A stretch of DNA of 64,000 bases from Vicinamibacterales bacterium (lineage in GTDB: Bacteria; Acidobacteriota; Vicinamibacteria; Vicinamibacterales; CAZQMT01): positions 1,154,849 to 1,218,848 of the forward strand of contig CBDAOD010000002.1 in NCBI GenBank assembly GCA_965197935.1, read 5' to 3'. This document shows positions 20,282 to 57,341 of the stretch, one piece after another. Both the position numbers and the translations under genes were made by a program. Position 1 is the stretch's first letter. Every line of letters starts with the position of its first letter. Under the pieces are notes generated by a model, which did not search any database, had not been told where the DNA came from, and was given only the letters and a program-made list of their open reading frames with translations.

Positions 20282-20305
20282 TGGTGCCCCCGAACCGTGC
20301 CCCGT

Positions 20306-20353: not shown

Positions 20354-20372
20354 AACACGGGACGCGGACAGC

Positions 20373-23651: not shown

Positions 23652-23727
23652 TGGAGCCGGCGCGCGGACTCGAACCGCGGACCTGCTGATTACGAATCAG
23701 CTGCTCTACCAACTGAGCTACGCCGGC
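23652..23727 (-). tRNA. tRNA-Thr(CGT), intact (island 1 junction)
   Basis: 76 nt, GCCGGCGTAGCTCAGTTGGTAGAGC...GCTGA-TTCGTAA-TCAGC...GGTTCGAGTCC...CCA. Confidence 0.97.
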
Positions 23728-23767
23728 ATACCTTTAGAATAAGTGACTTACGAGGATATAGAAATTA

Positions 23768-23814
23768 CTGCCAGCCGTTTCTGCCAGCCAAACGACACGT
23801 GGCGCGGCTGGCAG
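23768..23814. repeat. Putative integrase arm-type sites (CTGCCAGCC x2 direct, x1 inverted)
   Basis: Direct at 23768-23776 and 23781-23789; inverted at 23806-23814. Confidence 0.6.
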
Positions 23815-23929
23815 AAGAGCCCCAGCGGCGGAGGAGGCGGGCACGACAGGATCCTGATCCTCACTGTCACGAGGTCCCTATTGTAGTCCGTTCCCGGTGT
23901 GGGGTGCGACCTTCGAGAGAGCTCCATCG

Positions 23930-24345
23930 TCACGGGTTGGCCACGACACGCAGCCGCCGGATCGCGTCGCGCTGCTTGGTGAGCGTCGGGGCCGCGTAGA
24001 TCCGCGTCGTCGTCGGGTCAGTGTGGCCGTAGAGGTCCTGAATGTCCGCGAGGTCAGCCCCGGCGTGCCGGAGCCACGTCGCGAACGTGTGGCGAATCTG
24101 ATACACGGTGAACGGTTCCAAATTCGCTTTTCGGGCTACCGTGCGGATCGCCTTGTTCGCACTCGGCGTGGACCAGGGGCCGAAGGCCTCGCTCTCGATG
24201 AACGCGCGTGCCGCCGCGACTGGGTCGTCCACCAGCGGGATTGTGGCCAGACGGCCGTGCTTCCCGCGCGGGACGGACACGTACGGGATGGACTCCTGAA
24301 GGTGGAAGTCGGCGCGGGTCAGACGCCCCATCTGGGATGGCCGCA
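23930..24345 (-). pseudogene. Tyrosine recombinase C-terminal fragment 1
   Basis: GMRPSQ (catalytic R), YQIRHTFAT (HxxR-box variant), LYGHTD, RIYA. The N-terminal domains are missing. Confidence 0.85.
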
Positions 24346-24424
24346 TGCCGTCCGGTCCTCGCCCTCCGCAGCAACTCGCCCCCTGGCCACACCCCCCGGG
24401 CAACTCTTCCGCGCGCCTAAGGGC

Positions 24425-24794
24425 AAAGACGAATTCGCACAGCGTGGGGTTGGTGTGGGCGCAAGCTGGTTGGGAGATGTACTGGGCACTAGTGGACGCC
24501 CACGGTTTCGACCCCGAGTTGTTCAACGCTAGTGGTAGCGCCGGAAACCAAAGAGCAATGCTCTACGTTACCGAAGGACTCATGAATACCGCCTGTAGTC
24601 CAACGTTCGTCGATGTGCGTGATGCGATCATACAGGCGGCGATTGACAACCATGGCGGCGACGGTGTCTGTCGGCTGTGGAACTCGTTTGCTGCGTTCGG
24701 GCTGGGGCTCGATGCCTTTGGCGGTGGGCCCAACACTACATCTTCTGTCAACAATGGCCACGAGACCCCTTCCACCTGCACTGCAGACAAGTAG
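24425..24794 (+). pseudogene. C-terminal fragment of an M36/M4-like metallopeptidase
   Basis: HSVGLVWA...WEMYWALV...PTFVDVRDAIIQA...RLWNSFAAFGLG. No HExxH region is present. Confidence 0.6.
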
Positions 24795-24841
24795 ATTAGT
24801 ACGCTTCCTGACGCCGCCGTACAGGTGGCTCTAGGCCAGGG

Positions 24842-25825
24842 CTAGACCGGATTCAGGATACCAGGAAGTTTCTTCGTTCGAATGTTCCAGATCGACCTTG
24901 CAAGCAGAATCTCGTTCGTTGGGATTTCCCAGGCTTTTGTGACGGCCGTGATGAGCTCGGTGTCCGCAGGATAGAGGGTGATCAGTTCGGCGGCGCCTTG
25001 TATAAGGCTAATAAGGCTTGTCGTGTAGGCGGGTTGTTGGACTTGACGGTGAAAGGTGTCCTGCAGCTTCTCATCATGGACCGTGTTGGGAATTGGTCCA
25101 TGCTCGTTAAACATTAGCTTGAGAAGCAGCGCATCCGGCAACCCATGGGCGAATGTGCAGAGAAACACATACTCCCGATACAAGCGGTCGAGCATCCGTC
25201 GCTTATCGCTGTTTTCTCGAAGGCTGTCGAGGGCACGTGACGGTGACGGGAACCGTGAAATGTATTCCGCCGCGGTTCCCGCCGGCAGCGGTATGCCAAG
25301 TTCATCGTGTTCGATGGTGGCCACTTGGGCGTCAGTAATCCCATGTAATTGGCGGAGGGCGTTCAAATTGGCGGGGGCTGACTGCGTACAGAAATCGCGA
25401 AAGCGCAGTAGATTCTTTGTTTCCTCGCATTCCAAGAGCAACCGGGTGTACTGCTTCTTCCATCCATCCTTGAGATAGGCGTCTACCCACGAGGCGTCCT
25501 CGAACATGAGGCAAAGGGTGTAGAGTCCCTCAAGCGGCAGGCGAGCAAGTGCGAGTGCATCAATGGATTCGGGGTTCTGCCAACCGGCAGCGAGAACTTT
25601 TCGAACTAGTCGGTGGGTCGAAAGCATAGACAGGTACACGGTCTGGATGATCCGTCGCTGGAAGTCCGTGTGTGTCGAAGTATGGTTGTCCAGGGCCAGA
25701 AGGGCGCGGTGCATGGCAGCTTGCATGGCGGCTTCTAGCTGTTCGGCGTTGACGTGGTGGTCGGGGTCCACGTCCTCGTTGTGGACGTATGCGCACTCTC
25801 TAATCGGCTTCACATCAAGTTCCAC
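24842..25825 (-). CDS. Hypothetical helical protein, DUF5677/HEPN-like
   Basis: 327 aa, lower GC. ALARLPLEGLY and LYREYVFLCTFAHG resemble HEPN-derived family motifs. Confidence 0.55.
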   Translation of the reverse strand: MELDVKPIRECAYVHNEDVDPDHHVNAEQLEAAMQAAMHRALLALDNHTSTHTDFQRRIIQTVYLSMLSTHRLVRKVLAAGWQNPESIDALALARLPLEGLYTLCLMFEDASWVDAYLKDGWKKQYTRLLLECEETKNLLRFRDFCTQSAPANLNALRQLHGITDAQVATIEHDELGIPLPAGTAAEYISRFPSPSRALDSLRENSDKRRMLDRLYREYVFLCTFAHGLPDALLLKLMFNEHGPIPNTVHDEKLQDTFHRQVQQPAYTTSLISLIQGAAELITLYPADTELITAVTKAWEIPTNEILLARSIWNIRTKKLPGILNPV

Positions 25826-26157
25826 CTCAGTGGCCGGGGCTGCGCCGGCAGGACTACCCGCTCAATCGGTTCGGAGCCTCTAGTGCGGCTTGCCGAGCGT
25901 GACCTCTTGCCGGGTTCGGGAGCCGCGTGTCGCGCGACCGCGGACCAAAGAGAGGAGGTTGAGGGCCAGGCCAAGCTGGGATTCCGGTCGTTGCAGATTC
26001 GCGCAACGGTGTTTGTCAGCCAAAAGGGCGCGCAACGGCTGGCACAAGCCGTTGGGGTGACCGGGGCGAGCCCGACCGGTTCCGGATCTTCGTTGTCACG
26101 AGGTCCCTATTGTAGTCCGTTCTCGGTGGGGGTGCGACCTTCGAGAGAGCTCCATCG

Positions 26158-26405
26158 TCACGGGTTGGCCACGACACGTAGCCGCCGGATCGCGTCGCGC
26201 TGCTTGGCGAGCGTCGGGGCCGCGTAGATCCGCGTCGTCGTCGGGTCAGTGTGGCCGTAGAGGTCCTGAATGTCAGCGAGGTCAGCCCCGGCGTGCCGGA
26301 GCCATGTCGCGAACGAGTGGCGAATCTGATACACCGTGAACGGTTCAAGATTCGCTTTTCGGGCTGCCGTGCGGATTGCCTTGTTCGCACTCGGCGAGGA
26401 CCAGG
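26158..26405 (-). pseudogene. Tyrosine recombinase C-terminal fragment 2 (near-duplicate of fragment 1)
   Basis: PWSSPSANKAIR...IRHSFATWLRHAGADLADIQDLYGHTDPTTTRIYAAP. The downstream non-coding DNA is also nearly identical to 23870-23930. Confidence 0.85.
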
Positions 26406-26409
26406 GGTC

Positions 26410-26682
26410 GCGCTCGTGGCAGCCGGCCTCGCGGCGGAGGAGCTCGTCGTTGAGGATGTCTCGGTGCGGATCCTGCCGCAGCCGGCGGAGCCGCACAACG
26501 CGGCGGCCACGTTCGATCTGGTCCGGATGCGGGCCGGGCAGGAAATCGCACGGGAGTCGTGGTCGGTGTCGATGCAATTTCGCTTTCTGCCGGAGATCCC
26601 TGGGGAGCTGGTCGTCTGGAATCCGATGGGCCTTGTGATCAGCTTTCTTCAAGGGGACCGGATCGTGACGTCCAGTCGGTAG
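26410..26682 (+). pseudogene. C-terminal remnant of a VirB8/TrbF-like T4SS protein
   Basis: ...ATFDLVRM...WSVSMQFRFLPEIP...NPMGLVISF resembles the VirB8 NPLG C-terminal motif. It lies upstream of the virD4-virB11 block. Confidence 0.55.
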
Positions 26683-26689
26683 CTTGCTG

Positions 26690-27792
26690 ATGATCGCCCA
26701 TCTCACGGATCGGGCGGTGGCGCTCGCCGCGCTCGGGTGGACGGGCCAGGATGCGGAGTGGCTGGCCTTCGTCTGTCTGCATAGTGGCGTGTTTCTGCGC
26801 GCGCAATATCTGACGTTCACCGGTGAAGCATCCCCGTCTGCGGCCGCCCGCTTTGTCGAACGGTGCGGGGCGGCGGCGGTCGAGGAGACGTTGAACGGGA
26901 GCGGCCGGCTCTTAGAGTCTCCCTCTGGGATGGGTGAAACCCCTCGCCTTTAGGCGAAGCCTTCAGGAGGCCGCAGGGCCGGACCTCTTCGGGCTCTGGG
27001 ACGTGCGCCGTGATAGTCGGCTTCAGCCGACGCGGCGCACTGATTCCCTCGCCTTCAGGCGAGGGAGACTCAATGTGTCGGATCGTCGCGCGGCCGGTGT
27101 ACCGGGCGCTCGGGGCGGAGCACATTCGGCACCGGCGCGCGGCGTCGCATGGGCTGGTGGTGCGGCGGTTGCTGTCGCTCGATTACGTCCTTGACCATGC
27201 GGCGCGGCCGTGGCTGGTGACGGAGGAGGAAAAGGTCACGGCGTTGACGGCGGCGGGGGTGCCGGAGGCGGTGCTGCCGCGGCGTGTGTATGAGGGGCAC
27301 CAGCCGGGCACGGGGCAAACCCGGTACTTCGTCCACAAGTTGCCGGTCGCGCTCGATACGGACCGGGCGACGTTCGTGTTTGTCCAGCCCCCTGGGGACA
27401 TCACGCAGCAGGCGTTGCGCTCGTGGGGCGCGTCGCACGCGGCGCTGTGGGCGGCGCTGCGGGCGGCGGGTCGCGTGGTCACGGTCGTCGTCGTGGGGCA
27501 GGATCCGGAGCGGCTGGCTGCGGCGCAGCACGTGGTGAACGGCTGGACGGCGACCGGGCCAGCGGCCCAGGCCGGGGGGAAGGATGTGGCGGCTGAGCTG
27601 GCGGCGCTCCGCTCCGCCGTGATCGCGGGGGACCCGGAGGTGCTGCGCCGCGAGGGTGGACTAAATGGGGCACTGGTGCGCCTCGCGGCACTGCAACAGC
27701 AGCGGGACGAGACGCAGGCCGGTGCGACGGGCATCGCGCCACACATCACGAGCGGGGAGACGTGGCGCTCGCGGCGGGTGGCGGTCCCATGA
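26690..27792 (+). pseudogene. ICE-associated hypothetical protein interrupted by the 158-bp element
   Basis: Removing 26916-27073 gives the in-frame junction GRL-LV-CRIVARPVY. ATGA overlap with virD4. Confidence 0.75.
26916..27073 (+). mobile_element. 158-bp non-autonomous IS200/IS605-type element, copy 1
   Basis: Follows TTAG, ends TCAA, no target duplication, subterminal CCCTCGCCTTYAGGCGA hairpins. Identical by eye to 50583-50740 and 57094-57251. Confidence 0.9.
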
Positions 27793-29807
27793 TCGTGATG
27801 CTGGTGCTGCTGGTCGTGGGCGCGAGCTGGTGGTGGATCGCCCCGTTCCCTGGGCCGGGCGCGGATCCGGTCGTGGATCTGCTGGCGGCGCGGTCGCCGT
27901 GGCTGCACGAGGCGATCCGGGCCTGGCATTACCTCGCGCCGGGCGTCGCGCTGGTGGGCGGTTGGTTGGTCGCGCGGGCGGTCGGGCGCGTGTGGTTCGC
28001 GTCACGCGGGCTGCCGGCCTGGCAGATCGCCGCCAGCGATGCGACGCCGGCCATCGTGGTCGGGGAAGTCCATCATCCGGTGGCGCTCCGGGAAGTGCCG
28101 GCGCCCCGCTGGCTCACGATTCCGGAGCGGGGCCTCTATACGGGCATCCTCGTCGTCGGCGCGATCGGCTCGGGGAAAACCTCCGCGTGCATGCGGCCGT
28201 TCGCGCGGCAACTGCTCGCCTGGCAGGCGGACGATTCGCGGCGGCGCATGGCGGGCCTGGTACTCGAGGTCAAGGGCGATTTTTGTCATCAGGTCCGGGA
28301 CATCTTGATCGCGGCGGGCCGCGGCGAGGACTACATTGAACTCGGCCTCGGCGGGCGTTGGCAGTGGAACCCGCTGAGCGCGCATTGGCTCGACAGCTAC
28401 TCGCTGGCGTACACCGTCGCCAGCTTGATCAATCAACTGTTCGGCAAGGGTAGTGAACCGTTCTGGCAACAGGCGTACACGAACCTGGTCCGCTGGCTGA
28501 TCGAACTGCACCGGATGCGCCCCGGCGGCTGGGTGACGCTCCGGGACGTGTACCGCTGCGCGCTGGAACCGGAGCGGATTGCCACGCTGATTGCCGAGGT
28601 CGCGGCGGAGGTGGACCCGCCGCAAACAGTCCGGATCGAGAACGCGGTGGCGGTCGAGTACGCCGAGGCCCTGACCAAGGACTGGGTGTGGTCGGAGGAG
28701 GTGCCGGGGTTCGCCGAGACGAGGGATTCGGCGGAGGTCCGACACACACTCGAGGCCTTGGGCATCACGTTCACGGTCGAGGGCGGGCCGACGGCCGGCG
28801 GCGACCCGGCGCAGCGGGAACGGCTCGAGGCGGTGCGGCGGTGGTTCACCCACGATTGGGGCAAGCTCGACAAGAAAATCGGTTCGACCGTCTCCGAGGG
28901 GCTGTCCGTGTTCCTGTCGGTGTTCGATCTGCCGGAGGTGGCGTCGGTGTTCTGTCCGCCCGCGCCGCCGCCGCGGGCCACGCGGGCGAAGGCGACGGCC
29001 GGCGATGAGGCGGAGCTGCCAGCGGTCGGCGATGAGGCGGACCTGCCAGAGGCCGGGGCCGGCGTGACGCGGCCGCTTCCACCGCTCGACGAGGTGATTG
29101 AGTCGGGGAAGGTGCTGGCACTGAATATGCCGGCGGGGACGAATGCGGCGCTGGCGCGCGCGGTCGGCGTGATGCTCAAACAAGCCTGGCTCCAGACGTT
29201 GCTGCGCCGGCCGGCGCAGATGCAACGGGCGCCGAATCGGGTCTTTCGACCGGCCATGTTCCTGTGCGACGAGTATCAGAGTTTCGCCACCGTCGGCGAA
29301 GAGGATCCGAGTGGCGACGAGAAGGCGTTTGCGCTCACGCGGCAGTGCCGGCTGATTCCGATTGTGGCGACGCAATCCATCTCGTCACTCCGGGCCGTGC
29401 TCGGGCGCGGGGAAGCGTGGCGGGCGCTCCTCCAGACGCTCCGGACGCGGATCTTCCTGTCGCTGTCCGATGATGCGTCGGCGCAGATCGCCAGCGGGTT
29501 GTGCGGGCAGGTCGCCAAGATGAAAGCGAGCTACACCGTCTCGGAGCAGACGGCGCGCGCGAGCGCGTCGCTGCTGTCGGGGGCGGCCGGTGGCGGGACC
29601 GGCAGCGTCGGCGCGAGCAAGGCGTTTGCTGAACGCCGGGAACCGCTGTTCCATCCGCGGGACTTCACCATCCTCGGCAACTGTCAAGCCATCGTGCAAC
29701 CGTACGACGGGAGCCGATCACTCGATGCCACGCGCTGCTACCTCAAACCGGACTTTCTGCCGTCGGATCGGCCGTACTGGCGGGCGCGTGAGGCCGGGGA
29801 ACTGTAG
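27789..29807 (+). CDS. virD4: Type IV secretion coupling protein (VirD4/TraG-like)
   Basis: N-terminal TM helices; GAIGSGKT; EVKGDF; DEYQSF; ATQS. Intact. Confidence 0.85.
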   Translation: MIVMLVLLVVGASWWWIAPFPGPGADPVVDLLAARSPWLHEAIRAWHYLAPGVALVGGWLVARAVGRVWFASRGLPAWQIAASDATPAIVVGEVHHPVALREVPAPRWLTIPERGLYTGILVVGAIGSGKTSACMRPFARQLLAWQADDSRRRMAGLVLEVKGDFCHQVRDILIAAGRGEDYIELGLGGRWQWNPLSAHWLDSYSLAYTVASLINQLFGKGSEPFWQQAYTNLVRWLIELHRMRPGGWVTLRDVYRCALEPERIATLIAEVAAEVDPPQTVRIENAVAVEYAEALTKDWVWSEEVPGFAETRDSAEVRHTLEALGITFTVEGGPTAGGDPAQRERLEAVRRWFTHDWGKLDKKIGSTVSEGLSVFLSVFDLPEVASVFCPPAPPPRATRAKATAGDEAELPAVGDEADLPEAGAGVTRPLPPLDEVIESGKVLALNMPAGTNAALARAVGVMLKQAWLQTLLRRPAQMQRAPNRVFRPAMFLCDEYQSFATVGEEDPSGDEKAFALTRQCRLIPIVATQSISSLRAVLGRGEAWRALLQTLRTRIFLSLSDDASAQIASGLCGQVAKMKASYTVSEQTARASASLLSGAAGGGTGSVGASKAFAERREPLFHPRDFTILGNCQAIVQPYDGSRSLDATRCYLKPDFLPSDRPYWRAREAGEL

Positions 29808-30797
29808 TGGAACTCTCGCTCAACGATCTGAAGCCGTTTCTTCCTGGGCTGGAATCCGTGCTCGATGACGACGAGGTGTCGGAACTGATGGTGAACGGGC
29901 CGGGGACGGTGTTTGTGGAGCGTGGCGGTCGCATGACGGCCATGCGGGTACCGGAGCTCGACGAGGCGGCGGTGCTCCGGGCGGCGGTCCAGATCGCGCG
30001 GCCGTTGGGGCGTGATCCACACACGGAGCCGATCATCGATGCGCGGCTCGGGGACGGCTCGCGCGTCGCGATTTGCAGTCCGCCGGCGTCGCCGTGTGCG
30101 GCGATCACGATCCGCCGGTTCGGCGGGCGGGCGTTCACGATGGCGGAGCTGGTGGCCAGCGGCGCCGTCTCACCGGTGGTCGTCGACGAGGCGCGGCACG
30201 TCCTGCAGTATGGCGGCAACATCTTGATTGCCGGGGGCACGGGCTCCGGCAAAACCACGCTGCTCAATGCACTCGTGGCGCTGCTCCCCGAGGCCGGGCG
30301 CATCGTGTCGATCGAGGACACGCTCGAGCTCCAGCTCCGCCGCGCGAACTGTGTCCGGTTCGAGGCGCGGGGGTTGACGGGCGCGGTGACGATTCGGGAC
30401 TTGGTGCGCCACGCGCTGCGGCACCGGCCGGATCACATTGTCGTCGGCGAGGTCCGCGGCGCGGAAGCGGCGGACTTGCTCCAGGCGCTCAACACCGGAC
30501 ACGGGGGGCTCGCTGGCGACGGTCCACGCGAATCATGCGACGGCGGCGCTCTCGCGGTTGGCGAGCTGCGCGATGCAAGCGAGCGATGCGCTGCCCTGGT
30601 CGGTCGTCTGTCGCGGGGTGGTCGATGGGATCGAGGCGGTGATTCAACAGGCGCGGTCGCCGGAGGGTGTGCGCCAGGTCATGCAGATGGTGCGCGTGCG
30701 GGACTATGACGCGACGCGCAATACGTGGATCGTCGAGGACGTGTGGCCGTCGTCGGCGGCGGGCGCGGCCGCGGCATCGGAGCGGTGTCAGGAATGA
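29807..30797 (+). pseudogene. virB11: VirB11/CpaF-family secretion ATPase with a +1 frameshift
   Basis: GGTGSGKTTLLNAL, IEDTLEL, PDHIVVGEVRG, LNTGHGG. SLATVHAN continues in another frame after a G6 run near 30503-30508. Confidence 0.85.
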
Positions 30798-30815
30798 GGG
30801 ACGAAGGGAGAGACC

Positions 30816-31043
30816 ATGCGAGTACGAACAGGGCACGTCGATCCAACGGGCGAGGACATCCCCACGCGGCTGGCGGCAGGCGAGCCGCCGCCGATCACAG
30901 TCGAAACACGGGAAGCGTTTGCGCAGGCGGTCGCCACGATGCTCCGGACGGGTCGGCCGATTCGCGTCCCGTCGCGCGAGGATCTGGAGGCGTGGGTCGG
31001 GCCGCTCGACGAGCTGGACGAGGGGGATCAATACGATGGCTAA
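30816..31043 (+). CDS. Small hypothetical protein
   Basis: 75 aa ORF overlapping the ardC start; compatible operon position. Confidence 0.4.
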   Translation: MRVRTGHVDPTGEDIPTRLAAGEPPPITVETREAFAQAVATMLRTGRPIRVPSREDLEAWVGPLDELDEGDQYDG

Positions 31044-32109
31044 CGCAGACAACACGCCGTCCCGCGTGGACGCCTACCATGAACAGTTCGCCGACAAGAT
31101 GATCACGGCGCTGGAAGCGGGCACCGCTCCGTGGCAAAAGCCGTGGGCACCAGGGGAGCAGATTAGTCCGCAGAATTTCAGCTCGTCGCGGGACTACCGC
31201 GGCGGCAACGCGATCTACCTGGCGGTCGCCGCGGCAGAAAAGGGCTATACAGATCCACGCTGGGGCGGGTACCGGCAGATTTCGGAGGCCGGCGGGCATG
31301 TCCGCAAGGGTGAGAAGGGCACGCCGATCATGTACGTGGAGTACCAGTCGCGGACGCTGGAGAAAGACGACCAGGGCCAGCCGAAGCGGGACGCCGACGG
31401 AAATCAACAGTATCGCGTCGAGCAACGGGACCGGCCGATGGTGCGAATCCATACCGTGTTCAACGTCGAGCAAACGGAGGGGCTGAGGCTGCCCGAGCTC
31501 GGGAAGCGCGAGGCGCCGGCGTGGGAGGGCCACAAGCGCGTCGAGGCGGTGATGCGAGGGAGTGAGGTGACGATCACGCATGAGCCTGGCGACCGGGCGT
31601 TCTATCACAAGGCGCAGGATCGGGTCGTGCTCCCGTCGCCGTCGCAGTTCCCGACGCAGGCCGGGTACGCGCACACGGCGCTGCACGAGCTGGCGCACGC
31701 CACGGGACACGAGACACGGTTGAATCGGCCGACGTTGATGAAACACGAGGGATTCGGATCGGAGACGTACGCCCGTGAGGAACTGCGCGCGGAAATGTCG
31801 GCCATGATGGCCGGCGAGCAGCTCGGCGTCGGGCACGAACCGCGGCACGGCACGGCGTACGTGGCGTCGTGGATCAAAGCCGTACAGAACGACCCGCGTG
31901 AAATCCGGCTCGCGGCTGTGGATGCACAGAAGGCGGCCGACTGGCTCGTCACGCGGGAGCGGACCATGGAGCGGGAACCGACCATGGACCAAGCCGGCCG
32001 CAAGGATGCGCTGCCGCCGCCGCCGCCCACGCCGCCGCCGGTGACGCGGACGCCGGAGCAGCCGACGCCGGCTCCCGACATGGAGCGGGATTTTGGGCCG
32101 AGTCTCTAG
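31036..32109 (+). CDS. ardC: ArdC-like antirestriction ssDNA-binding protein with zincin-like metallopeptidase domain
   Basis: LEAGTAPWQKPW, YRGGNAIYL, RWGGYRQ, VRKGEKG, HELAHATGH, YAREELRAE. Probable start ATG 31036. Confidence 0.9.
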   Translation: MANADNTPSRVDAYHEQFADKMITALEAGTAPWQKPWAPGEQISPQNFSSSRDYRGGNAIYLAVAAAEKGYTDPRWGGYRQISEAGGHVRKGEKGTPIMYVEYQSRTLEKDDQGQPKRDADGNQQYRVEQRDRPMVRIHTVFNVEQTEGLRLPELGKREAPAWEGHKRVEAVMRGSEVTITHEPGDRAFYHKAQDRVVLPSPSQFPTQAGYAHTALHELAHATGHETRLNRPTLMKHEGFGSETYAREELRAEMSAMMAGEQLGVGHEPRHGTAYVASWIKAVQNDPREIRLAAVDAQKAADWLVTRERTMEREPTMDQAGRKDALPPPPPTPPPVTRTPEQPTPAPDMERDFGPSL

Positions 32110-32262
32110 TGGCCGCCGCGGGCGTCGGTCGGCTGAGGGTCGTCAAGACGTCGGACTGGAGCATGGCATCACGATCCAGAACGGCCATGATGGTCGCTCG
32201 GTGTGTGAGCGACATAGCGTCAGTGTCCGGGGTGTGCGCCCCCCTTCCTGGAAGGAATAATC

Positions 32263-32360
32263 GGACCTGAGCGACCCCACCGGGGGGGTGTCCTGTTTGC
32301 GAAATAGGACACCTCTCCGGGGCCACAAATCGACCGATTTGAGGGGGGTCGCTCAGGTCC
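32263..32360. other. Nested inverted-repeat element, candidate oriT
   Basis: Perfect 16-bp IR GGACCTGAGCGACCCC (32263-32278 / 32345-32360) enclosing GGTGTCCTGTTT/AAATAGGACACC and AAATCG/CGATTT hairpins. Confidence 0.5.
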
Positions 32361-32573
32361 AGAGCTTTTTTGATTTGGGTCCAGTGGATGCGAAAACAGC
32401 AATACCTACCGGGCGGAACGTGGCCTGATGGTGCGAAAAGCCAGGCTGGAAGTGTGCGAAATAGGGGCCGAAGGTATTTCGCACGTGATGTGGGTCCAGA
32501 GCGGGTATTTTGAGCGTGTCACGGAGGGGCGGAGTATAGTGACCATCATGGCCGCGCCGGTCGGTCGAAAGCC

Positions 32574-33497: not shown

Positions 33498-33811
33498 GGC
33501 CGTGGCGGGTGGCTGTCGGGCTGACGATGACGGGCGGGGCGCTCGCGGTGTGGGCGCTGTGGCTCGAACTCGCGTACCTGCGGCCGTATGGGGCAGTCCT
33601 GCTGGTGGACTATGGGTGGTATGTCGGGGCGCATGGCGGGCTGGCGCTGGTGACGCTCGGGGCCAGCGTGTACGTCGCGGCCCGGTCGATGTCATTGGGC
33701 GCGGTGGGCCGCAAGGTGGATGTGGTCGAGCGGACGATTCGCCGGGGAACGGGGCAGGATCCGGAGCTGGCGGAGGCGCTGGCTCGTGACGAGTCGGGAG
33801 ACTACAGCTAA
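33494..33811 (+). CDS. Small membrane protein
   Basis: 105 aa with two hydrophobic segments; GTGA overlap with the upstream gene. Confidence 0.6.
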   Translation: MRPWRVAVGLTMTGGALAVWALWLELAYLRPYGAVLLVDYGWYVGAHGGLALVTLGASVYVAARSMSLGAVGRKVDVVERTIRRGTGQDPELAEALARDESGDYS

Positions 33812-34243: not shown

Positions 34244-34253
34244 GGATAAAGCT

Positions 34254-34541: not shown

Positions 34542-34664
34542 CCACGCACGTCAATTCAGAGGCAGACGCTCCGGAAGTTGAAAGTCCCGCAGATAGAAGC
34601 GTCGAAGGCGAACGACTTAAGGCAGGCGTACGTTGTGCGAAAGACACAGGTCTTGGGAGGTGAA

Positions 34665-39703: not shown

Positions 39704-39913
39704 GAACGCTATGAGCCCTACCGGAGTATGTGGGCATTTTCCGTTAGCAATAACGGAGGCGAAACCGCGTTAGATCTTGCCCTCGACATGCCGAACGACG
39801 GCATCGCGCTCGTGAGAGGTGACGGAAGACCAGTCGACACACATGAGTCCGTCGCGGCGCATGACGGCCCTTGTTCGCCCTGTCGGTCCGTCGTCGGCGA
39901 TAATCGGCCTGCC

Positions 39914-48678: not shown

Positions 48679-48822
48679 GGCGGTAGACCGCAAGGCGCTC
48701 AGGTCCCGGTTCATGGACGACGTGAGTGAGCGCCTCCTCGAAATCCTCCGGGGCCGGGCGGGCCTAGAAGTGTTCGAGAACTTGATTTGTGATCGCCTTG
48801 ACCGTATGGGCTACGGGCTTAT

Positions 48823-49412
48823 GGTCACATTCTGGGATGGGTGAACCCCCTCGCCTTCAGGCGAAGCCTTCAGGAGGCTTGCGATACGATGTCCGATGAT
48901 GCGCGAGTATCGTCGAGCTGCCCATACGATCTATACCCTGCACTACCATTTCGTGTTCATCACGAAGTATCGCAAGCCGGTGCTGCGTGGGGATGTGGGC
49001 ACGGAGGTGCGGACCCTGATCCGGGAGATCTGCCGGAGCCACGACATCGAGATTCTGCAGGGGCACATTCGACCGGACCACGTGCACTTGCTGTTGAGCG
49101 TGCCCCCGCACCTGGCGCCGAGTCGGGTGATGCAAGCGATCAAAGGCAAGACGTCGCACCATCTGTTGCAGGATCACCGGAAGCTGCGGTCGTTGTTCTG
49201 GGGGCGGCACCTGTGGGCTCGCGGCTACTTCGTGTGCAGCAGCGGGAATGTGACGGATGAGGTCATCGAGCAGTACATCAAGCTTCAAGGTGCTGAACCC
49301 CAGGACGACGAGCGCTTTCGAGTCAGCGAGTAAGTTCGCTGGGGCGCCGACGCCCCTTCAGTCGACTTCAGTCGACCCGTGAATCCCTCGCCTTCAGGCG
49401 AGGGTTGTTCAA
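48823..49412 (+). mobile_element. IS200/IS605-family element (tnpA only)
   Basis: Follows TTAT, ends TCAA. Subterminal hairpins TCGCCTTCAGGCGA at both ends; guide-like GAAT before the right hairpin. Confidence 0.9.
48896..49333 (+). CDS. tnpA: IS200-type HUH (Y1) transposase
   Basis: HFVFITKYRKPVL, PDHVHLLL (HUH), IKGKTS, LWARGYF, YI. Confidence 0.95.
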   Translation: MMREYRRAAHTIYTLHYHFVFITKYRKPVLRGDVGTEVRTLIREICRSHDIEILQGHIRPDHVHLLLSVPPHLAPSRVMQAIKGKTSHHLLQDHRKLRSLFWGRHLWARGYFVCSSGNVTDEVIEQYIKLQGAEPQDDERFRVSE

Positions 49413-50582
49413 GCGAGTTGGCTCGAGCACTTATCAAAAAGATGGTGACATTGACATTGTCGCGTGGCCCCGCGCGTCATTGTTTCCATTTCTTGTGGCG
49501 GTCCAAGCCAAGCACACCATACGTCCAGAACACAGGATTGGACCTGCACCCGTTCGGGAGCTCCTGGGTGCAGTGCAGCTGCACGGGTTTAATGCTGGGC
49601 TTCTGGTGACCAACACGAGCTTCACTCCAGACGCGGAATGGGTTGCTGAGCGCAGAGCCCTCTTGATGCGGCTACCTAGCGCGCTGGCTGCGCGACGAGT
49701 ATCCACGCGAGGCAGAATGGCGCGAGATACCTGCCGAGATAAAGATATGCCCTGGCGTCGTGATCAAGCTTCCACGACACTAGAAAGGCCTGCGACGCGC
49801 GGCATCAACGGCCTGCGTAGCCCGTGCTGCCCAGTTTCTACACCGCGCATGGTCTCTGAAGTGTCAGGGTGCCTGTCCACTGGTGTCGTAGGCCCAGGTC
49901 GGTCCGAGTCCACGACGATCGTCGCGTCGCCGAACGCGCCGAGAGAGACGGGGGGAAGCCTGGCCCGCTGTTTCAACCCTCGCCCGACCACGTGATCTGC
50001 GATCATGGAGACGGTCCCCGCTGCGGTCGAAGCGGCGCGTATCGCCGGGCCCCCGCCATCGTGGACTCCTTCTCGTATAAGGGTTAGGTGTTCACGAGAA
50101 CGGGGCAAGCCCACTCCGTAGCCGCGAGACGCCCTATATGGCAAACCGTGTGGTGGACGTGCTGTCGCGGATGTTCAACGTGGTCGAGGTTTAGGGTGTG
50201 GTCCCGTGGTGGTTCAGATTACGATTTGTCCGGCTCGGTATTAGATCATCTGCGTGTCCGTGTTGAGGCGAGATCGGAGAGAGTTGCGTTCCATGTCCAG
50301 CGTCAGCGTCACTGACATCGTGAAAATCCTCAGCGGGGTGGGACTCGCGCCCACCGAAACGATAGTCATTCCAGGACGAGACTCCAGGAACAGCCCCGTG
50401 CCCCCAGGGCTGCACACGAGTGTCAAGGCAGTGCTTTCGAGGGATTGTCCAGGCGGTCTCTACTCGCATCAAGCTGCGGCAATCCAACAGATTCTTGATG
50501 GCCGGGACATATGTCTGGCAACGCCAACGGCTTCTGGGAAGAGCCTGGTCTTCATGGCTGCTGCCGCAGAACTCACTCTTAG

Positions 50583-50740
50583 AGTCTCCCTCTGGGATGG
50601 GTGAAACCCCTCGCCTTTAGGCGAAGCCTTCAGGAGGCCGCAGGGCCGGACCTCTTCGGGCTCTGGGACGTGCGCCGTGATAGTCGGCTTCAGCCGACGC
50701 GGCGCACTGATTCCCTCGCCTTCAGGCGAGGGAGACTCAA
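50583..50740 (+). mobile_element. 158-bp non-autonomous IS200/IS605-type element, copy 2
   Basis: TTAG at 50579-50582, ends TCAA. Removal gives LTLR-EQSARVLALYP in frame. Confidence 0.9.
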
Positions 50741-52753
50741 AGAGCAGTCGGCTCGGGTCTTGGCGCTCTATCCAGCCAGGGCACTGATTCAAGATCAGCT
50801 TGCGAAGTGGACACAGTTCCTCGACCCGATGGGCACGTCTGTCGGTTTTGTCGACGGCAGCGTTGCCACCGCGTCTCGTCCGAACATCCTAGCTTCGTCG
50901 CGGGTTGTGGCAATGACTCCGGACGTAGCACATGCGTGGCTCATGAGCCATCTCGGCACTCCTGAGGTGACGAGCTTCCTCAAGAGCTTGTGTCTCGTGG
51001 TCCTCGACGAGGCGCATGTCTACGATGGTGCGTTCGGAACCAACATGGCCTATCTTCTCAGGCGGCTTGCGCTCACCTCAGCGCCCTACAGATTAGTTTG
51101 CAGTACCGCGACGGTCGGGGCTCCGAAGCGGTTCATTCAGCAGCTCACGGGCCGTGAGATGTTGGTTCTCGATGACGGCGACGATGGCAGCGCCCTCTTT
51201 CAGAAGACACTGCTTCAAGTGGAATCTTCCGCCAAGGGCGGCTTCGACCGAATCGTCCAGCTGCTGTCCGGACTGGCGAAGTATGGCCGGGCACGATTCC
51301 TGGCCTTTGGTGATTCCCGAAAGATGGTTGAACTTATCGTCGGCGCGATTCTTCGTGAGTCTGTCAGCGAATCCGATGGCAAAGAGGATGAGACCGATGA
51401 GCTTTCCAATGAGAAGGAGTACAGAGGGTGGCCGAAGCTTGAGCACGTCCTCCCATATCGCTCTGGCTACGAAACGACTGACCGCGAGGCGATTCAGAAA
51501 GCATTGACGAATGGTTCACTAGCTGGTGTTGTCTCGACCAGTGCTCTGGAACTAGGACTGGATATTGGAGACCTCGACGTTGTCGTTCTTCTGAACACAC
51601 CGCCGACAGTCAAGTCGTTCCGGCAACGGATCGGAAGGGCAGGGCGCAGGCGAGATGCTGTCTGCATCCTTATAGACGACCAAGGCGTGATGGCTCCTTT
51701 GCCTCAGTATGTTGACCGGAGCCCAGAACCTAGCTGGTTGTATCTTGACAACCGGTATATTCAGTATGCAAACGCCTTGTGCGCTGCGGCAGAGCTTCAG
51801 ACGGTTGGATTTGTCTCAGTTGAGAATCTCGACTTCGGCGGCCTGCCTGACACCTTTCTACGCTTATTGGAGAATGAGCTGAATCCAACTGCCGCAGTCG
51901 AGAATGACCTCTATGGCCTAAAGCAGCGCGCACAGGCCAATCCTCACTATGAGTTTCCAATTCGCTCTGCTGCCGAACCCAACTTCGAAGTAGAAGGGCC
52001 GTTCGGTTTGAAACTGGGAACATTGTCGTATGGTCAAGCGCTACGAGAAGCGTATCCCGGTGCGGTGTATCACTACATGGCACGCCCTTTTCGGATTCAG
52101 TCGCTCGAGTACAAGAAAGGCCTAATCAGAGCCTCGAAGTCAAAACGCTTCACTACCAAGCCAGTTACAGACACGATGGCTTTTCCAGATTTCCGAAACG
52201 GCCTCATCAAAGCATGGAAGTCCTCCAATGGTTTCGTTGCCGAGGTTGAACTTCAAGTGAACGAACGCGTGAAGGGATTCGTTGAGCGACGTGGCCCGAA
52301 CACACTGCCGGTTCACGAATACGGAACTGGATCACCGTACAGTCAAAAAAGCTTGTCTCGGCTGTTCCGGACCACGGGTGTTTGCTGGACGTTTCCTTCA
52401 AAGTTGGATAGGTCACCAGCCGCCGCGGATCTCCTGATGAAGGCCTTCGCATTTAATTGCGGAATCCATGAACGTGATCTCGGCACCGCTTTCTTTCACT
52501 CCAATGAGGGCCCCTTTTCGTCCGACGCGCTCAAGGGCACGGTCATTTTCGATGCGACAAACGGGAGTTTACGCTTAACGGAACGGCTAGCTCGAGACTT
52601 CGCAAGAATAATTGACTCAGCCATCGGCCACACCGACGTAGGCTCAACGGTCCGAAGTGAGCTAGAAGCCCTGCACCAACTGGTCGACGAACTTGAGCCG
52701 GCTGCATCCGTCTCGGGCCGTGTCAACGACTTTGAGACAACCTGATTCAGCAT

Positions 52754-53869
52754 TTAGTGTAGCGACTCCACGCTGGTAACGAGCGTGGCCGTGCGATCGT
52801 CGATGCGTGGTGGCGGGCCCATCACGCCCGGCTGCAGGTCGTTCGGGGTGACGGTCGTCGTGCTTGGGGCCGCATGGCTGGGGTGTGTCGGTGGCCGATT
52901 GATCCAGACCGCCGTGGGCAGGGTCTCTGGACGTGGTGGCCCTTGCACGAACCGCTCGGGATGGGCCGCGTAGGCGGCCAGGCGCGTGCGGTGACGGGCC
53001 GCCAGGACCGTGGCGGCGCGGCCGTAGTGGACATCGGCGGGCGTCAGATAGCTCAGGCCGCTGTGATGGTGCGCGTCGTTGTACCACGCGAACAGATCGC
53101 GGCTGACGCCGCGCGCGTGTTCGAGTGCGCCGAACCGGCCCGGAAACTCCGGCCGGTACTTCACGGTCCGGAACTGCGCTTCGGAGAACGGATTATCGTT
53201 GCTCACGCGGGGGCGCGCATGACTGGCGGTGATGCCCAGATCCGAGAACAACAGCGCGACGAGCTTGCTGCGCATGGGCGCGCCGCGGTCGGCGTGAATC
53301 GTGAGCTGCTGCGGCTGGATGCACTGCTTTGCGCAGGTCTGCTCGATCAAGCGCTCGGCCAAGTGCGCATTCTCGTGGCGCGCCACCATCCAGCCCACGA
53401 CGTAGCGGCTGAAGAGGTCGAGGATGACGTAGAGCGAGTAGTAGAGATAGGGGACCGGGCCTTTCAGCTTGGTGATGTCCCAGGACCAGACCTGATTCGG
53501 GCTCGTCGCGACGAGTTCGGGGGCGGCATAGGCCGGATGCCGGGCCTGGGCGCGCCGCTCGCGCACTTCGTGGGCCGCGGCGAGCACGCGATACATCGTG
53601 CGCGGGGAGCAGAGGTACGTCTGCTCCTCGAGCAACGTGGCATGGACCTCGGTGGGCGACTGGTCGACGAACCGCGCGCTGTGCAACACGTCGAGCACCG
53701 CCTGGCGCTCGGTCGCGCCCAGCGCGCGCGGCGACCGCGCCCGGGGCCGTGGAGGTGTGGCCGGCGGCGCGGGGCGCCGCCGACGGTAGAGTGACGCCCG
53801 GGACACCCCGACGCTCTGACACAGCGCCGCCGTCTCGCCTGGCGTCGTGACGGCGTCGATGGCCTGCAT
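52754..53869 (-). CDS. IS3 OrfB (DDE transposase)
   Basis: VWSWDITKL, DLFSRYVVGW, HADRG, NDNPFSEAQF. An A9 run upstream at 53925-53933 is a candidate frameshift site. Confidence 0.9.
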   Translation of the reverse strand: MQAIDAVTTPGETAALCQSVGVSRASLYRRRRPAPPATPPRPRARSPRALGATERQAVLDVLHSARFVDQSPTEVHATLLEEQTYLCSPRTMYRVLAAAHEVRERRAQARHPAYAAPELVATSPNQVWSWDITKLKGPVPYLYYSLYVILDLFSRYVVGWMVARHENAHLAERLIEQTCAKQCIQPQQLTIHADRGAPMRSKLVALLFSDLGITASHARPRVSNDNPFSEAQFRTVKYRPEFPGRFGALEHARGVSRDLFAWYNDAHHHSGLSYLTPADVHYGRAATVLAARHRTRLAAYAAHPERFVQGPPRPETLPTAVWINRPPTHPSHAAPSTTTVTPNDLQPGVMGPPPRIDDRTATLVTSVESLH

Positions 53870-54357
53870 TAGTCGGTCTCGTCGTCGTCGAGGGGTGTCA
53901 GGGGGATCCCCAGGATCTCGGCAATTTTTTTTTGGAGCGTGATGATCGTCTCCGCGCGCTGCAACTTCCGCTGCAACCGGCGGTTCTCGGCCTCGAGCTG
54001 GGTCACCCGCGGGTCGACGGGGCGCGGCGTCGGGCCCCGGCGGCGCCGGGGCATCTCCCGCAGGGCGCCCGCCTCGCGCTGTCGCCGCCAGTTCGTCAGG
54101 AGCGACGAATACAACCCCTCGCGACGCAACAGGGCGCCCACCTCGCCGGGTTTCTTGCACGCGTCGACGGCCTTGAGGATGCGGAGCCGATACGCGGCCG
54201 AGAAACGCCGCCGTTGGACCGTCGCCGGCACTTCCGGGTCCGGGGCGCGGGCCGGGGTCGTGGTCGCGGGGCCGGGGCCTCCCGTCGCCCTCCGGGCTCC
54301 CTCCACCCCCGGCCCCGCGACCACCTCGCTCTCCACCGCGTCTGGCATGCGCGTCAT
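53869..54357 (-). CDS. IS3 OrfA (HTH)
   Basis: RRRFSAAYRLRIL...LLRREGLYSSLLTNWRRQ. Confidence 0.9.
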   Translation of the reverse strand: MTRMPDAVESEVVAGPGVEGARRATGGPGPATTTPARAPDPEVPATVQRRRFSAAYRLRILKAVDACKKPGEVGALLRREGLYSSLLTNWRRQREAGALREMPRRRRGPTPRPVDPRVTQLEAENRRLQRKLQRAETIITLQKKIAEILGIPLTPLDDDETD

Positions 54358-55026
54358 CTCTCCAACCTCTCCCGCCCCTACACTAATCTCACTCGGAAGG
54401 TTGTCTCACCGATTATTGGCACAGGGGGTCTCAACGTCTTTACCCGTTGCCGCCGAAGGAGACTGGATTCGCGTTATCGATCGTGAACAACCTGCAATGT
54501 ACCTCAGTGGCGAGGCGCCAGCGGAGGTGAAGGTGCTGGACTTTCGCTATACGCCGCATGGCTTGATGTATCAACTCGAGCCTCTGCGGGACTCCGGCTA
54601 TTCCATGACTGTCGAAAAGGGCAAACTCGGGGCCGAGAAGACGATCACGAGGAATGCTCCTTTGAGATGGATGGTCATCGCTTCCGACATCCAGGCACTG
54701 AGCGGAAGAACAAGGATGGTTCAGTATAACGTTGTAACAGGCGAGGAGGCTTCGGATGTTCAGTCTAGCGACCGCGACTTGTAACGGTTTGCTTTGGATT
54801 ATTGGCGTGCGCCGTTGAATGCCTGCACGTCCCAACGATCGAGCGTAGCTGAGGATTTATCAACTCGGCAGTCTCTCTGCCAGGCCGAAGAGAAAGTCTT
54901 TGATCTCACGGAGTCGGTCGCATGCGATCAAAGAGCTTCCAGAAGCTCCACCGGGGATACCCCGCCACCACGTCTGTCAGAGCCGCGCTGACGAGGGCAT
55001 CCCGTCGACTCGCTAGCACCGGCGAT

Positions 55027-56497
55027 CGTCCCCCCCCCGAATTGAGTAGCGCCTGGGATTAGCGTTCGATCTCAGAGGGAAGGAGATCGGCCGTGAAGAA
55101 GCGGTTCAGCGAGACACAGATCATCGGGTTCCTGCAGGAGGCCGAGGCCGGCCTGCCGGTCAAGCAGCTCTGCCGGCGCCACGGGTTCTCGGAAGCCAGC
55201 TACTCCCTGTGGCGGAGCAAGTACGGCGGGGCGAGTGTCTCCGACGTGAAGCGGCTACGGGAACTGGAAGCCGAGAACACCAGGCTCAAGCAGCGGCTGG
55301 CGGAGTCGCTCCTCGAGAACGAGGTGACCCGCGAGGTGCTGTGCCGAACGTGGTGACCGCACCGGCCGGCCGCGTCCTGGTGCGAAGCATGACCGAACGC
55401 GACCTCAGCGAACGGCGCGCCTTGACCGTCATCGGGATGAGCGCCTCGTCGCTGCGCTACGTCCCGGCTCCCGATCAGAACGGAGCCCTCCGGGCTCGGA
55501 TCGTGGCCTTGGCGCACCGGCACCGTCGGTACGGAGCGGGCATGATCTCCCTCAAGCTGCGACAGGCGGGCGAGCGCGTCAATCATATGCTGTAATCGCT
55601 ACCGTACCCACCGTTGGTAGAGGAAGGTAGGGATGGAACAGTACGTTGGACTGGATGTATCCTAGCAAGAGACGGCGGTCTGTGTGATCGATGGAGGAGG
55701 CACGAGGCTGTGGGAAGACACGTGCCGATCGCCCCCGGCCGTTATTGCCAAGCTCGTGCGTGCCACGGCGCCCAGGGCGAGACGAGTCGGCCTGGAGACC
55801 GGGCCATTGGCCGTCTGGCACTGGCACGAGTTCAAGCGGTTGGGGGTGCCTGTCGTGTGTGTACATGCCAGGCATGTGAAGGCAGCCCTCTCGCTGCAGG
55901 TCAACAAGACTGACGAGAACGATGTCCATGGCCTGGCCCAGATCGTCCGGACGGGTTGGTTCAGGGCGGTCGAGATGAAGAGCCTGGAGAGTCACCAGCT
56001 GCGAACCATGCTCCAGGCTCGCCAGCGCCTCGTCGGTATCCGGACGACGCTGTACAACCAGGTGCGGGGCCTCCTGAAGACCTTTGGCGTGGTACTGCCG
56101 TCTGGGAAAGGCTCGACGTTCCTCGACTTGGTACACGTGCGAGCTCCACGGATCCCTACGCGCTGGAGTTCTGCGGCCGAGCCATGCTGACGTGGGCGTA
56201 CGCGCGCGGCGTAACCCTCCGGCATATTGAGCCGGGCAAGCCGAATCAAAATGCGTACATCGAATCGTTCAACGGGCGCTTACGGGACGAGTGCCTGAAT
56301 GAATACTGGTTCACGAGCCTCGCCCACGCCCAGGTCGTTATCGAAGCCTGGCGCCGCGAGTACAACGAAGAACGACCGAAAAAGGGATTGGGCGGGCTGG
56401 CGCCTGCTCACTACGCGAGGCAACTGATGGCGAATGGCAGTACAGTCACCGTCGGACTCTAAACCGACCCGCTACTGAAAGCGGGAGGACGTCGGCG
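55027..56497 (+). mobile_element. Degraded IS3-family (IS407-group) element with an internal IS110 fragment
   Basis: orfA 55093-55356 (MKKRFSETQII), orfB N-terminus to about 55590, orfB C-terminus ([23 protein letters not shown]) to 56462. Confidence 0.85.
55633..56135 (+). pseudogene. IS110-family transposase N-terminal fragment
   Basis: MEQYVGLDVS then TAG; VGLETG; [12 protein letters not shown]. Truncated. Confidence 0.8.
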
Positions 56498-56559
56498 GGA
56501 CGAAGTACAGTCACTCTCGGACTCTAAATCGATCCGCTACTGAAGACGGGGGGACGTCG

Positions 56560-56960
56560 CCTGAGGCCGATAAAACGCCGCCCGCGACAGCCTCACCACG
56601 CGACAGGCCCGCTGCACCGGCAGTTGGTGCTCGCCGACCAGCATCTCGGCGACCTGTCGCTTCGCGGACGGCCCTATAACTTTCGGCTCAGCACATCCTG
56701 AATGGCCGCGTTCTCGAGCGCCAGGTCGGCGTACAGCCGCTTCACGTTGGAGACACTCGCCCCGCCGTGCTTGCTGCGCCACTTGAAGAAGGTGGCCCGG
56801 CTGACCCCATGCTTCCGCAGCAGGTCGTTGACCGGCACGCCCGCCTCGGCATCCTTCAGGATGCCGACGATCTGGGTCTCACTGAACTTCGACTTGCGCA
56901 TGACCGCTCCTTGAACCGGAGCAGTCTACCCTCGGCTGTCGCTCAATCGGGGAAGCTTAC
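56560..56960 (-). mobile_element. Second IS3/IS407-group fragment
   Basis: orfA 56674-56901 (MRKSKFSETQIVGIL, internally deleted) and the start of orfB. Confidence 0.75.
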
Positions 56961-57018
56961 GAAGAGCCGATCTACAACACTCTTGACGTCTGTTGGGTCG
57001 GCGCATCCGTAGCGTCTT

Positions 57019-57058
57019 CTGCCAGCCGGACTGCCAGCCGTTTCTGGTTCTGTCAGCC
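57019..57058. repeat. Putative integrase arm-type sites (CTGYCAGCC x3 direct)
   Basis: Copies at 57019, 57031 and 57050; same motif as 23768-23814. Confidence 0.6.
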
Positions 57059-57093
57059 ACTTTCTGACCTGTTGTGACCCGTTGTGCTTTTAG

Positions 57094-57251
57094 AGTCTCC
57101 CTCTGGGATGGGTGAAACCCCTCGCCTTTAGGCGAAGCCTTCAGGAGGCCGCAGGGCCGGACCTCTTCGGGCTCTGGGACGTGCGCCGTGATAGTCGGCT
57201 TCAGCCGACGCGGCGCACTGATTCCCTCGCCTTCAGGCGAGGGAGACTCAA
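57094..57251 (+). mobile_element. 158-bp non-autonomous IS200/IS605-type element, copy 3
   Basis: TTAG at 57090-57093, ends TCAA. Lies between the arm repeats and the att core. Confidence 0.9.
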
Positions 57252-57301
57252 TTTTCTCAATGAATACGGGATTCATTGGGTTTACGGAGTGGAACCGAAC
57301 G

Positions 57302-57341
57302 GATTACGAATCAGCTGCTCTACCAACTGAGCTACGCCGGC
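57302..57341 (-). repeat. att site: 5' 40 nt of tRNA-Thr(CGT) (truncated tRNA)
   Basis: Identical to 23688-23727. The match stops just 3' of the anticodon loop. Confidence 0.92.

Follow-up and report, generated by a model that had tools for sequence, protein, structure and literature searches.

A decayed island at tRNA-Thr(CGT) of a Vicinamibacterales bacterium appears to carry the 5' half of its target gene, as do elements with related tyrosine integrases

In the standard account of integration into tRNA genes, the element brings with it the target's 3' portion (PMC1635311), and island-finding programs are built on this 3'-end rule (PMC1635311). The reverse polarity, in which recombination involves the 5' part of the tRNA, has been recorded in one bacterial element (Zhao & Williams 2002) and in several archaeal ones (PMC6563490). 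Here we describe a decayed island at a tRNA-Thr(CGT) gene in a 64,000-nt stretch of DNA, analysed as a whole and hereafter called the window, from a Vicinamibacterales bacterium (GCA_965197935.1, contig CBDAOD010000002.1, positions 1,154,849-1,218,848 of the forward strand), which very probably integrated with this reverse polarity. A first-pass annotation of the window had started from the premise that most tRNA-targeting elements carry the 3' end, in agreement with the standard account (PMC1635311), and had proposed that the attachment site of this element (attP) supplies the 5' half instead. tRNA genes were called with ARAGORN, and protein domains with Pfam, PADLOC and NCBIfam.

The outer limits of the island are set by a direct repeat of part of the tRNA gene:

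23652-23727, minus strand: intact tRNA-Thr(CGT) (ARAGORN), with a 3' half that is unique in the window
23688-23727, minus strand: attL core, repeat copy 1, equal to tRNA positions 1-40 (repeat finder, family D15, and 28-nt probe)
57302-57341, minus strand: attR core, repeat copy 2, the displaced host 5' half (repeat finder and 28-nt probe)

The two copies are identical over 40 nt (23688-23727 and 57302-57341) and read GCCGGCGTAGCTCAGTTGGTAGAGCAGCTGATTCGTAATC on the tRNA strand, covering the acceptor and D arms and the 5' strand of the anticodon stem and continuing through the 7-nt loop TTCGTAA into the first 2 nt of the 3' stem strand. That the repeat is the 5' half of tRNA-Thr(CGT) up to the anticodon loop had been claimed in the first-pass annotation, and both ARAGORN and the exact repeat confirm its coordinates. 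Identity breaks exactly at tRNA +1, the 5' end of the gene at 23727, with an 'a' at 23728 against a 't' at 57342. A 28-nt probe for the 5' half, allowing up to 3 mismatches, matched the window at two places, which are the two repeat copies, and gave 0 matches in shuffled controls; a 38-nt probe for the 3' half, run over the whole window, found no second copy, its sole match being the intact gene. The identity block includes the loop with its symmetric anticodon stem on either side, as in elements of the anticodon-loop sublocation. The polarity is not the conventional one: the displaced fragment consists of positions 1-40 and lies upstream of the intact gene, and the integrase-bearing element likewise lies upstream of the regenerated tRNA, the arrangement of the reverse orientation. 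Together with a tyrosine recombinase gene beside the tRNA, the combination of a partial-tRNA direct repeat and one intact tRNA is that of a tRNA island. The tRNA-Thr(CGT) gene is perfectly intact, its acceptor stem paired throughout, and would be a chimera of element positions 1-40 and host positions 41-76.

The recombinase is represented by two incomplete copies at the tRNA-proximal end of the island:

23930-24349, minus strand: tyrosine-integrase remnant (Pfam PF00589), 208 nt from tRNA +1
26010-26410, minus strand: second partial integrase copy, comprising residues 262-341, the 3' flank and part of the first arm site (repeat families D2 and D11, tblastn, alignment)

Pfam places the catalytic domain of a tyrosine recombinase at 23930-24526 on the tRNA strand, reading towards the tRNA 5' end. 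Full-length relatives are about 340 aa long, the best being P0003 (342 aa, 86% identity), which served as the reference for the window. Compared with P0003 by tblastn, 23936-24349 corresponds to residues 204-341 only (86% identity), and the coding part of the second copy, 26164-26403, to residues 262-341. Since direct repeats bracket only the DNA between them, and the integrase remnant, an integration host factor (IHF)-like site and the arm motifs lie on the inner side of both repeats, we take the intervening DNA to be the island. The identical repeat boundaries in L029, L045 and L067 and the want of a second 3'-half copy in the window agree with this, and an alternative based on the mobile-looking genes left of the tRNA genes (below) is very improbable. 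GC content within it is mostly 0.56-0.66, rising to 0.68-0.71 over about 26-33 kb; the right flank and the DNA directly adjoining the tRNA genes on their left have 0.68-0.70, and parts of the left flank are lower. The integrase remnant and arm motifs at the tRNA-proximal end, the drop in GC and the same geometry in two related elements (L029 and L067, below) all argue for an element origin of tRNA positions 1-40, and so support the proposal that attP supplies the 5' half.

Both ends of the island carry short motifs of the kind found in integrase attachment sites:

23768-23776 and 23781-23789, minus strand, and 23806-23814, inverted: putative arm-type integrase sites GGCTGGCAG, integrase-proximal arm
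57019-57027 and 57031-57039, minus strand: putative arm-type sites GGCTGGCAG, far arm
57050-57058, minus strand: degenerate arm-type site GGCTGACAG, far arm
23738-23750, minus strand: IHF-consensus-like site YAANNNNTTGATW, matching at 7/9, at -23 to -11 from tRNA +1

The motif GGCTGGCAG occurs 5 times in the 64 kb against 1.1 expected, with 5/5 occurrences at the island ends, and relatives keep the same pair at the same distance from the tRNA; far-arm equivalents number 3 in L067 and 2 in L029. Such paired repeats on both arms have the look of arm-type integrase-binding sites. Scored over the 9 positions of the consensus YAANNNNTTGATW, the IHF-like site matches at 9/9 in the same position in L008, L011 and L029 and at 8/9 in L005 and L018, against 7/9 in the window; read by eye, L069 and L070 also score 9/9. 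The background rate of matches at 8/9 or better is 15 per 128,000 positions. Position and conservation point to binding of integrase at the arm sites and of IHF at the IHF-like site. From the arm sites to tRNA +1, the sequence forms a block that is strongly conserved across elements occupying different tRNA genes. We considered the TGATTCTAAAG/TAAG part of this block as a conserved island promoter and rejected that idea, as 8-9 of the 9 positions of the IHF consensus are matched there; its conservation is explained by an IHF-type site and recombination and is not evidence for a promoter.

The arrangement of the window recurs among full-length relatives of its integrase (342 aa). At 13 distinct other loci the integrase gene precedes the tRNA gene on a shared strand and reads towards its 5' end, and the targets comprise eight tRNA species, that of the window included:

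Thr-CGT: L005-L009
Arg-TCT: L011, L012 and L070
Arg-CCG: L018 and L024
Arg-TCG: L019 and L088, and L017 with a partial tRNA at the contig end
Arg-CCT: L028 and L029
Gly-CCC: L014
Ser-TGA: L069
Lys-TTT: L067

Both ends of the element are visible in two of these. In L029 a 44-nt repeat, made up of 3 nt plus tRNA-Arg(CCT) positions 1-41, brackets a 7.2-kb element with the integrase inside, and in L067, on a closed Vicinamibacterales chromosome, a 41-nt repeat of 2 nt plus tRNA-Lys(TTT) positions 1-39 brackets a 7.65-kb element, also with the integrase inside, and with arm motifs next to both the fragment (three) and the intact tRNA (two). A further locus, L045 (12140-20361), has a 44-nt 5'-half repeat of tRNA-Arg(TCT) around about 8 kb; no recognisable family integrase lies between its repeat copies, the sole family integrase fragment being on the 3' side of the tRNA. 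In the window as in L029, L045 and L067, the repeat reaches just 2 nt beyond the loop of the anticodon arm. This shared end point of the 5'-half repeats, together with the integrase-to-tRNA layout of the 13 loci, indicates from sequence comparison that possession of an attP with the tRNA 5' half characterises the clade.

The DNA upstream of the intact tRNA travels with the element and not with the host, because the arm sites and the IHF-like block are conserved before different tRNA genes while the 3' halves and flanks differ. In L005 and L008 the tRNA 3' halves and 3' flanks differ from those of the window, and DNA like that from 23728 onward precedes the tRNA. The first-pass annotation had named this pattern, if found in relatives, as evidence against its reading; it is ambiguous here, as both are occupied sites of other hosts, with a full-length integrase and other tRNA 3' flanks. 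In L005 the regenerated tRNA-Thr(CGT) gene (11207-11282) has a T6-G67 wobble in the acceptor stem (5' GCCGGTG, 3' CGCCGGC), a stem that is perfectly paired in the window and in L008; the wobble could be a trace of an element-borne 5' half imperfectly matched to a host 3' half. Other family integrases (L020-L022, L023, L025 and L026) have frameshifts and no intact tRNA downstream and appear to be decayed copies, L020 retaining the IHF-like block followed by a degenerate tRNA-Arg-like stub.

More distant relatives carry the other half of their targets. In L052 (31% identity) a 52-nt repeat runs from 4 nt before the loop to the tRNA 3' end, which is the conventional polarity, and in the viral contig L082 the same arm motif is followed by the 3' half of tRNA-Met. 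The integrase family as a whole would therefore use the anticodon-loop sublocation, the window clade carrying the opposite tRNA half. Beyond PF00589 the integrase falls in no named family in Pfam or NCBIfam, its N-terminal 195 residues giving no Pfam family match. Among deposited phages and plasmids identity is at most 30%, over roughly the C-terminal half of the protein, and the best cultured-phage match is the integrase of Pseudomonas phage D3 (30% identity). No free attP was found: a search of viral contigs with the paired arm motif gave mostly chance matches and the conventional relatives L082 and L085, and a scan with an integrase profile gave one extra reverse-type locus (L088).

The window copy of the element appears degenerate. 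When the full-length homologue was compared with the whole window by tblastn, the N-terminal 203 residues of the integrase were found nowhere. The possibility of a merely frameshifted gene was rejected, as tblastn finds only residues 204-341 and 262-341 and the protein is truly truncated. The second partial copy points to a tandem or recombined state in the past; a relic tRNA of a tandem array beside it was sought and rejected, since homology ends within the first arm site and no tRNA fragment follows. The far arm is also interrupted:

57086-57252: 167-nt structured repeat (repeat family D1), between the far-arm sites and the core

Further copies of this repeat lie at 26908-27074 and 50575-50741, the copies being 99-100% identical with a fold z-score of -6.3. 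With the repeat subtracted, the spacing from arm to core is 76 nt, compared with 88 nt in L067 and 107 nt in L029, and its insertion in the attachment arm is another sign of decay. The ends of the repeat resemble the flanks (48818-48878 and 49380-49404) of an IS200-type Y1 transposase gene at 48896-49333, and it looks like a non-autonomous miniature derivative mobilised by this transposase. Because the integrase lacks residues 1-203, a second partial copy is present and the 167-nt repeat splits the arm, the window element is a decayed composite that is probably no longer mobile and very probably unable to excise by itself. The first-pass annotation overlooked this decayed state with its truncated integrase, as well as the earlier documentation of reverse polarity.

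We hold it very probable that 23728-57301, plus one 40-nt core, is a decayed integrative mobilisable or conjugative element with anti-phage cargo, whose tyrosine integrase recombined at the tRNA anticodon loop with reversed polarity. The attP would have carried tRNA positions 1-40, with the core, the IHF-type site and two GGCTGGCAG arm sites on the integrase side and two or three more arm sites on the other. Crossover, presumably within the anticodon loop, would have joined the element 5' half to the host 3' half, giving the intact gene at 23652-23727, and would have displaced the host 5' half with its upstream region by 33.6 kb to 57302-57341. Transcription of the intact tRNA would now rely on element DNA, whether by a weak promoter in the 208-nt spacer between integrase and tRNA or by read-through from upstream minus-strand genes, and the promoter-like site on the host side may drive a 40-nt tRNA stub into the island.

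Several results weigh against this explanation or limit what it can cover. No site upstream of the intact tRNA on the island side passes the sigma-70 scan, and the conservation of that region can be accounted for by the IHF-type site. The window integrase is a fragment, so no activity can be claimed for the window copy. An empty site was not found: the PAP2 flank protein has a best homologue of only 52% identity, with no synteny. Finally, polarity is not uniform in the clade, since in L015 (56% identity to P0003) the arm sites adjoin tRNA-Arg(CCT), encoded on the opposite strand, at its 3' end. L015 has two GGCTGGCAG arm sites within 1867-2090, and as its other element end is off the contig, its conventional polarity is only apparent.

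L015 also bears on how polarity is set. In a rough neighbour-joining tree, the comparison of integrase phylogeny with polarity that the first-pass annotation had called for, the reverse-type loci cluster together, with L015 as the apparently conventional departure. Counted manually, the distance from arm to anticodon loop is nearly equal in L015 and in the reverse type (about 71 and 74 nt), which suggests that inversion of the core relative to the arms switches the tRNA half that is carried; polarity may have flipped back at least once within the clade. A broader proposal, which we offer tentatively and with somewhat less than even confidence, is that these are members of an undescribed clade of integrases of about 340 aa in Vicinamibacterales-like Acidobacteriota that would be systematically of reverse polarity, the 5' halves of at least eight tRNA species lying in its attP at a constant spacing from the IHF site and the GGCTGGCAG arms. 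Polarity in this clade might flip by inversion of the symmetric core relative to the arms, and the window element would have decayed in place, leaving its tRNA permanently dependent on foreign upstream DNA.

How the regenerated tRNA gene is expressed is the point on which alternatives to a dedicated island promoter have to be weighed. The host side offers a candidate:

57352-57381, minus strand: host-side sigma-70-like site ATGATA-18-TATCAT (9/12, 0.2 expected in the region, consensus match only), pointing at the tRNA fragment

The first-pass annotation had placed the truncated copy behind host DNA with a TATCAT box, and this agrees with the position of the box at 57352-57357, 10 nt upstream of the fragment, with housekeeping-type genes beyond it, right of 57341 (a PAP2 phosphatase, a PepSY membrane protein, UvrA and an HtrA-like protease). 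The site is consistent with a tRNA promoter left orphaned. Nothing on the island side passes the scan. The island DNA and TATTCT box described before the intact tRNA do exist, the box lying at 23736-23741, 8 nt upstream, but it fails the sigma-70 scan and overlaps the IHF-like site. Weak hexamers occur there in most elements, TATTCT or GATTCT at about -14 to -8 and TAAGTT at about -22 to -17, the latter 18 nt after CTGGCA. Zhao and Williams are said to have concluded that an element of this kind must supply the promoter. Of the earlier claim that the tRNA depends on an island promoter, what stands is that transcription would now depend on element DNA, which follows from the geometry; the promoter itself has no passing sigma-70 site behind it. 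Transcription from within the integrase gene or together with it would be an equally good possibility.

The strongest alternative accepts the same geometry and dispenses with a dedicated island promoter, the chimeric tRNA being co-transcribed with the integrase or with other upstream minus-strand island genes and then processed. The lack of a passing sigma-70-like site on the island side is what this predicts, and integrase and tRNA always share one orientation; in L069 only 12 nt separate the stop codon of the integrase from tRNA-Ser, a gap that leaves no space for an intergenic promoter, and in the window both the integrase remnant and a 327-aa open reading frame (ORF) upstream of it are on the tRNA strand. 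The scan is a crude consensus match scored out of 12 and promoters of Acidobacteriota are poorly known; the AT-rich hexamers found in most elements also count against co-transcription, and a promoter could lie within the integrase gene, in its 3' end. We regard full dependence on co-transcription as possible but on balance somewhat doubtful. That the chimeric tRNA is poorly expressed or silent, the island being tolerated without a promoter while ACG is read by another tRNA-Thr, would suit the want of a good island-side promoter match and the fact that tRNA-Thr(CGT) decodes ACG only while tRNA-Thr(UGU) can also decode it, but it is improbable given the perfectly intact gene with its fully paired acceptor stem and the regeneration of complete genes by the clade across eight tRNA species, which argues for selection on function.

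A second tRNA gene, tRNA-Arg(TCT), lies at 23327-23403 on the minus strand (ARAGORN). It is unoccupied in the window, though it is a favoured target of the integrase clade elsewhere (L011 and L070). An extended -10-like sequence, TGATAGATT, is found about 23 nt upstream of it (within 23404-23450), and because tRNA-Thr ends in a T-run the two tRNA genes are probably separate transcription units.

The search for an empty site extended to a genome-contig scan with the PAP2 flank protein, which gave three loci at 47-49% identity with no tRNA nearby, and to an exact look-up of a PepSY-protein ORF in the form read from the window, which gave no match, an outcome that a differing called start codon would also produce. 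The host lineage is without a close island-free relative in the collections searched.

Within the island, the genes recognised are transfer functions, defence systems and insertion sequence (IS) debris:

24842-25825, minus strand: 327-aa ORF between the two integrase remnants, no Pfam or PADLOC match
27762-29807, plus strand: type IV coupling protein (Pfam, NCBIfam)
29807-30709, plus strand: VirB11/TadA-like ATPase (Pfam, NCBIfam)
30667-32109, plus strand: ArdC-like protein (Pfam, NCBIfam)
34578-37151, plus strand: type I methylase
37247-38515, plus strand: type I S subunit
39728-42469, plus strand: McrB-like protein with an EVE domain
42466-43830, plus strand: McrC
44308-48678, plus strand: NACHT antiphage protein HyoA, 1456 aa (NCBIfam equivalog, 1290.6 bits, cut-off 1200)
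48896-49333, plus strand: IS200-type (Y1) transposase, inside the defence cargo
49405-49995, plus strand: Mrr-type nuclease
50601-52745, plus strand: BrxH-like DEAD helicase
52754-54160: rve transposase
52754-56901: IS debris, comprising the rve transposase, HTH_Tnp_1 ORFs and an IS110 fragment
55104-55256 and 56735-56887: 153-nt inverted repeats within the IS debris (repeat finder)

Neither a relaxase nor VirB4 was detected in the ORFs scanned, and the transfer genes are limited to the coupling protein, the VirB11/TadA-like ATPase and the ArdC-like protein. The element thus falls short of the full set of a type IV secretion system, a relaxase and a coupling protein that defines an integrative and conjugative element, and this incomplete set fits a mobilisable or decayed element. 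The 1456-aa protein that scores as HyoA gave no match in Pfam or PADLOC. On a second contig, L004, a 323-aa gene lies upstream of a 138-aa integrase product identical to that of the window; in length, the one feature compared, it is close to the 327-aa ORF. Left of the tRNA genes are further mobile-looking genes, a coupling-protein remnant and defence genes. The region 19134-22464 is without integrase, arm motifs or tRNA fragment, and farther left lie an SNF2 helicase, a TerB-domain protein, a BrxC/D-family ATPase and a DEAD helicase, then RecBCD.

Because nearly all tRNA-targeting elements restore the gene's 3' end and island programs assume as much, elements of reverse polarity can be overlooked or wrongly bounded. 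The locus and its relatives form a natural set of examples across eight tRNA species with clear att landmarks, usable to ask what determines polarity when the target is nearly symmetric, how expression of a tRNA proceeds once element DNA has taken the place of its promoter, and whether an element that decays commits the host to retaining foreign DNA. In practical terms the value is modest, namely better annotation of Acidobacteriota islands and candidate integrase/att pairs. Reverse polarity is rare but already published; its consistency across a clade, the defined att architecture and the possible polarity flip deserve further study.

Compared with attP of the lambda type (core, H' IHF site, P' arm sites, int), the element has the same succession of core, YAANNNNTTGATW site, tandem arm repeats and integrase gene, with more repeats on the other arm; unlike in lambda, the binding of integrase and IHF is deduced here from position and conservation. 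With conventional anticodon-loop islands and prophages, the Williams 2002 class as summarised in PMC1635311, it shares a tyrosine integrase beside the tRNA, an identity block over the loop and symmetric stem, and regeneration of an intact tRNA, as well as arm-type repeats on both attP arms and an IHF-like site between core and arm. The distant relatives L052 and L082 have the anticodon-loop sublocation in common with it, and L082 also the arm motif. Unlike the conventional islands, the window element carries positions 1-40 and not the segment from the loop to the 3' end, so that it is the host promoter, and not the host terminator, that has been separated from the gene. The closest counterpart is the element of Zhao & Williams 2002, which, as cited in PMC6563490, likewise recombines with the tRNA 5' part and leaves a displaced 5' fragment upstream of the regenerated gene. 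In contrast to that element, the reverse polarity here is a trait of a clade of 342-aa integrases from Vicinamibacterales-like Acidobacteriota metagenomes, found at eight tRNA species and with a defined architecture of arm and IHF-like sites, of which the window holds a decayed copy.

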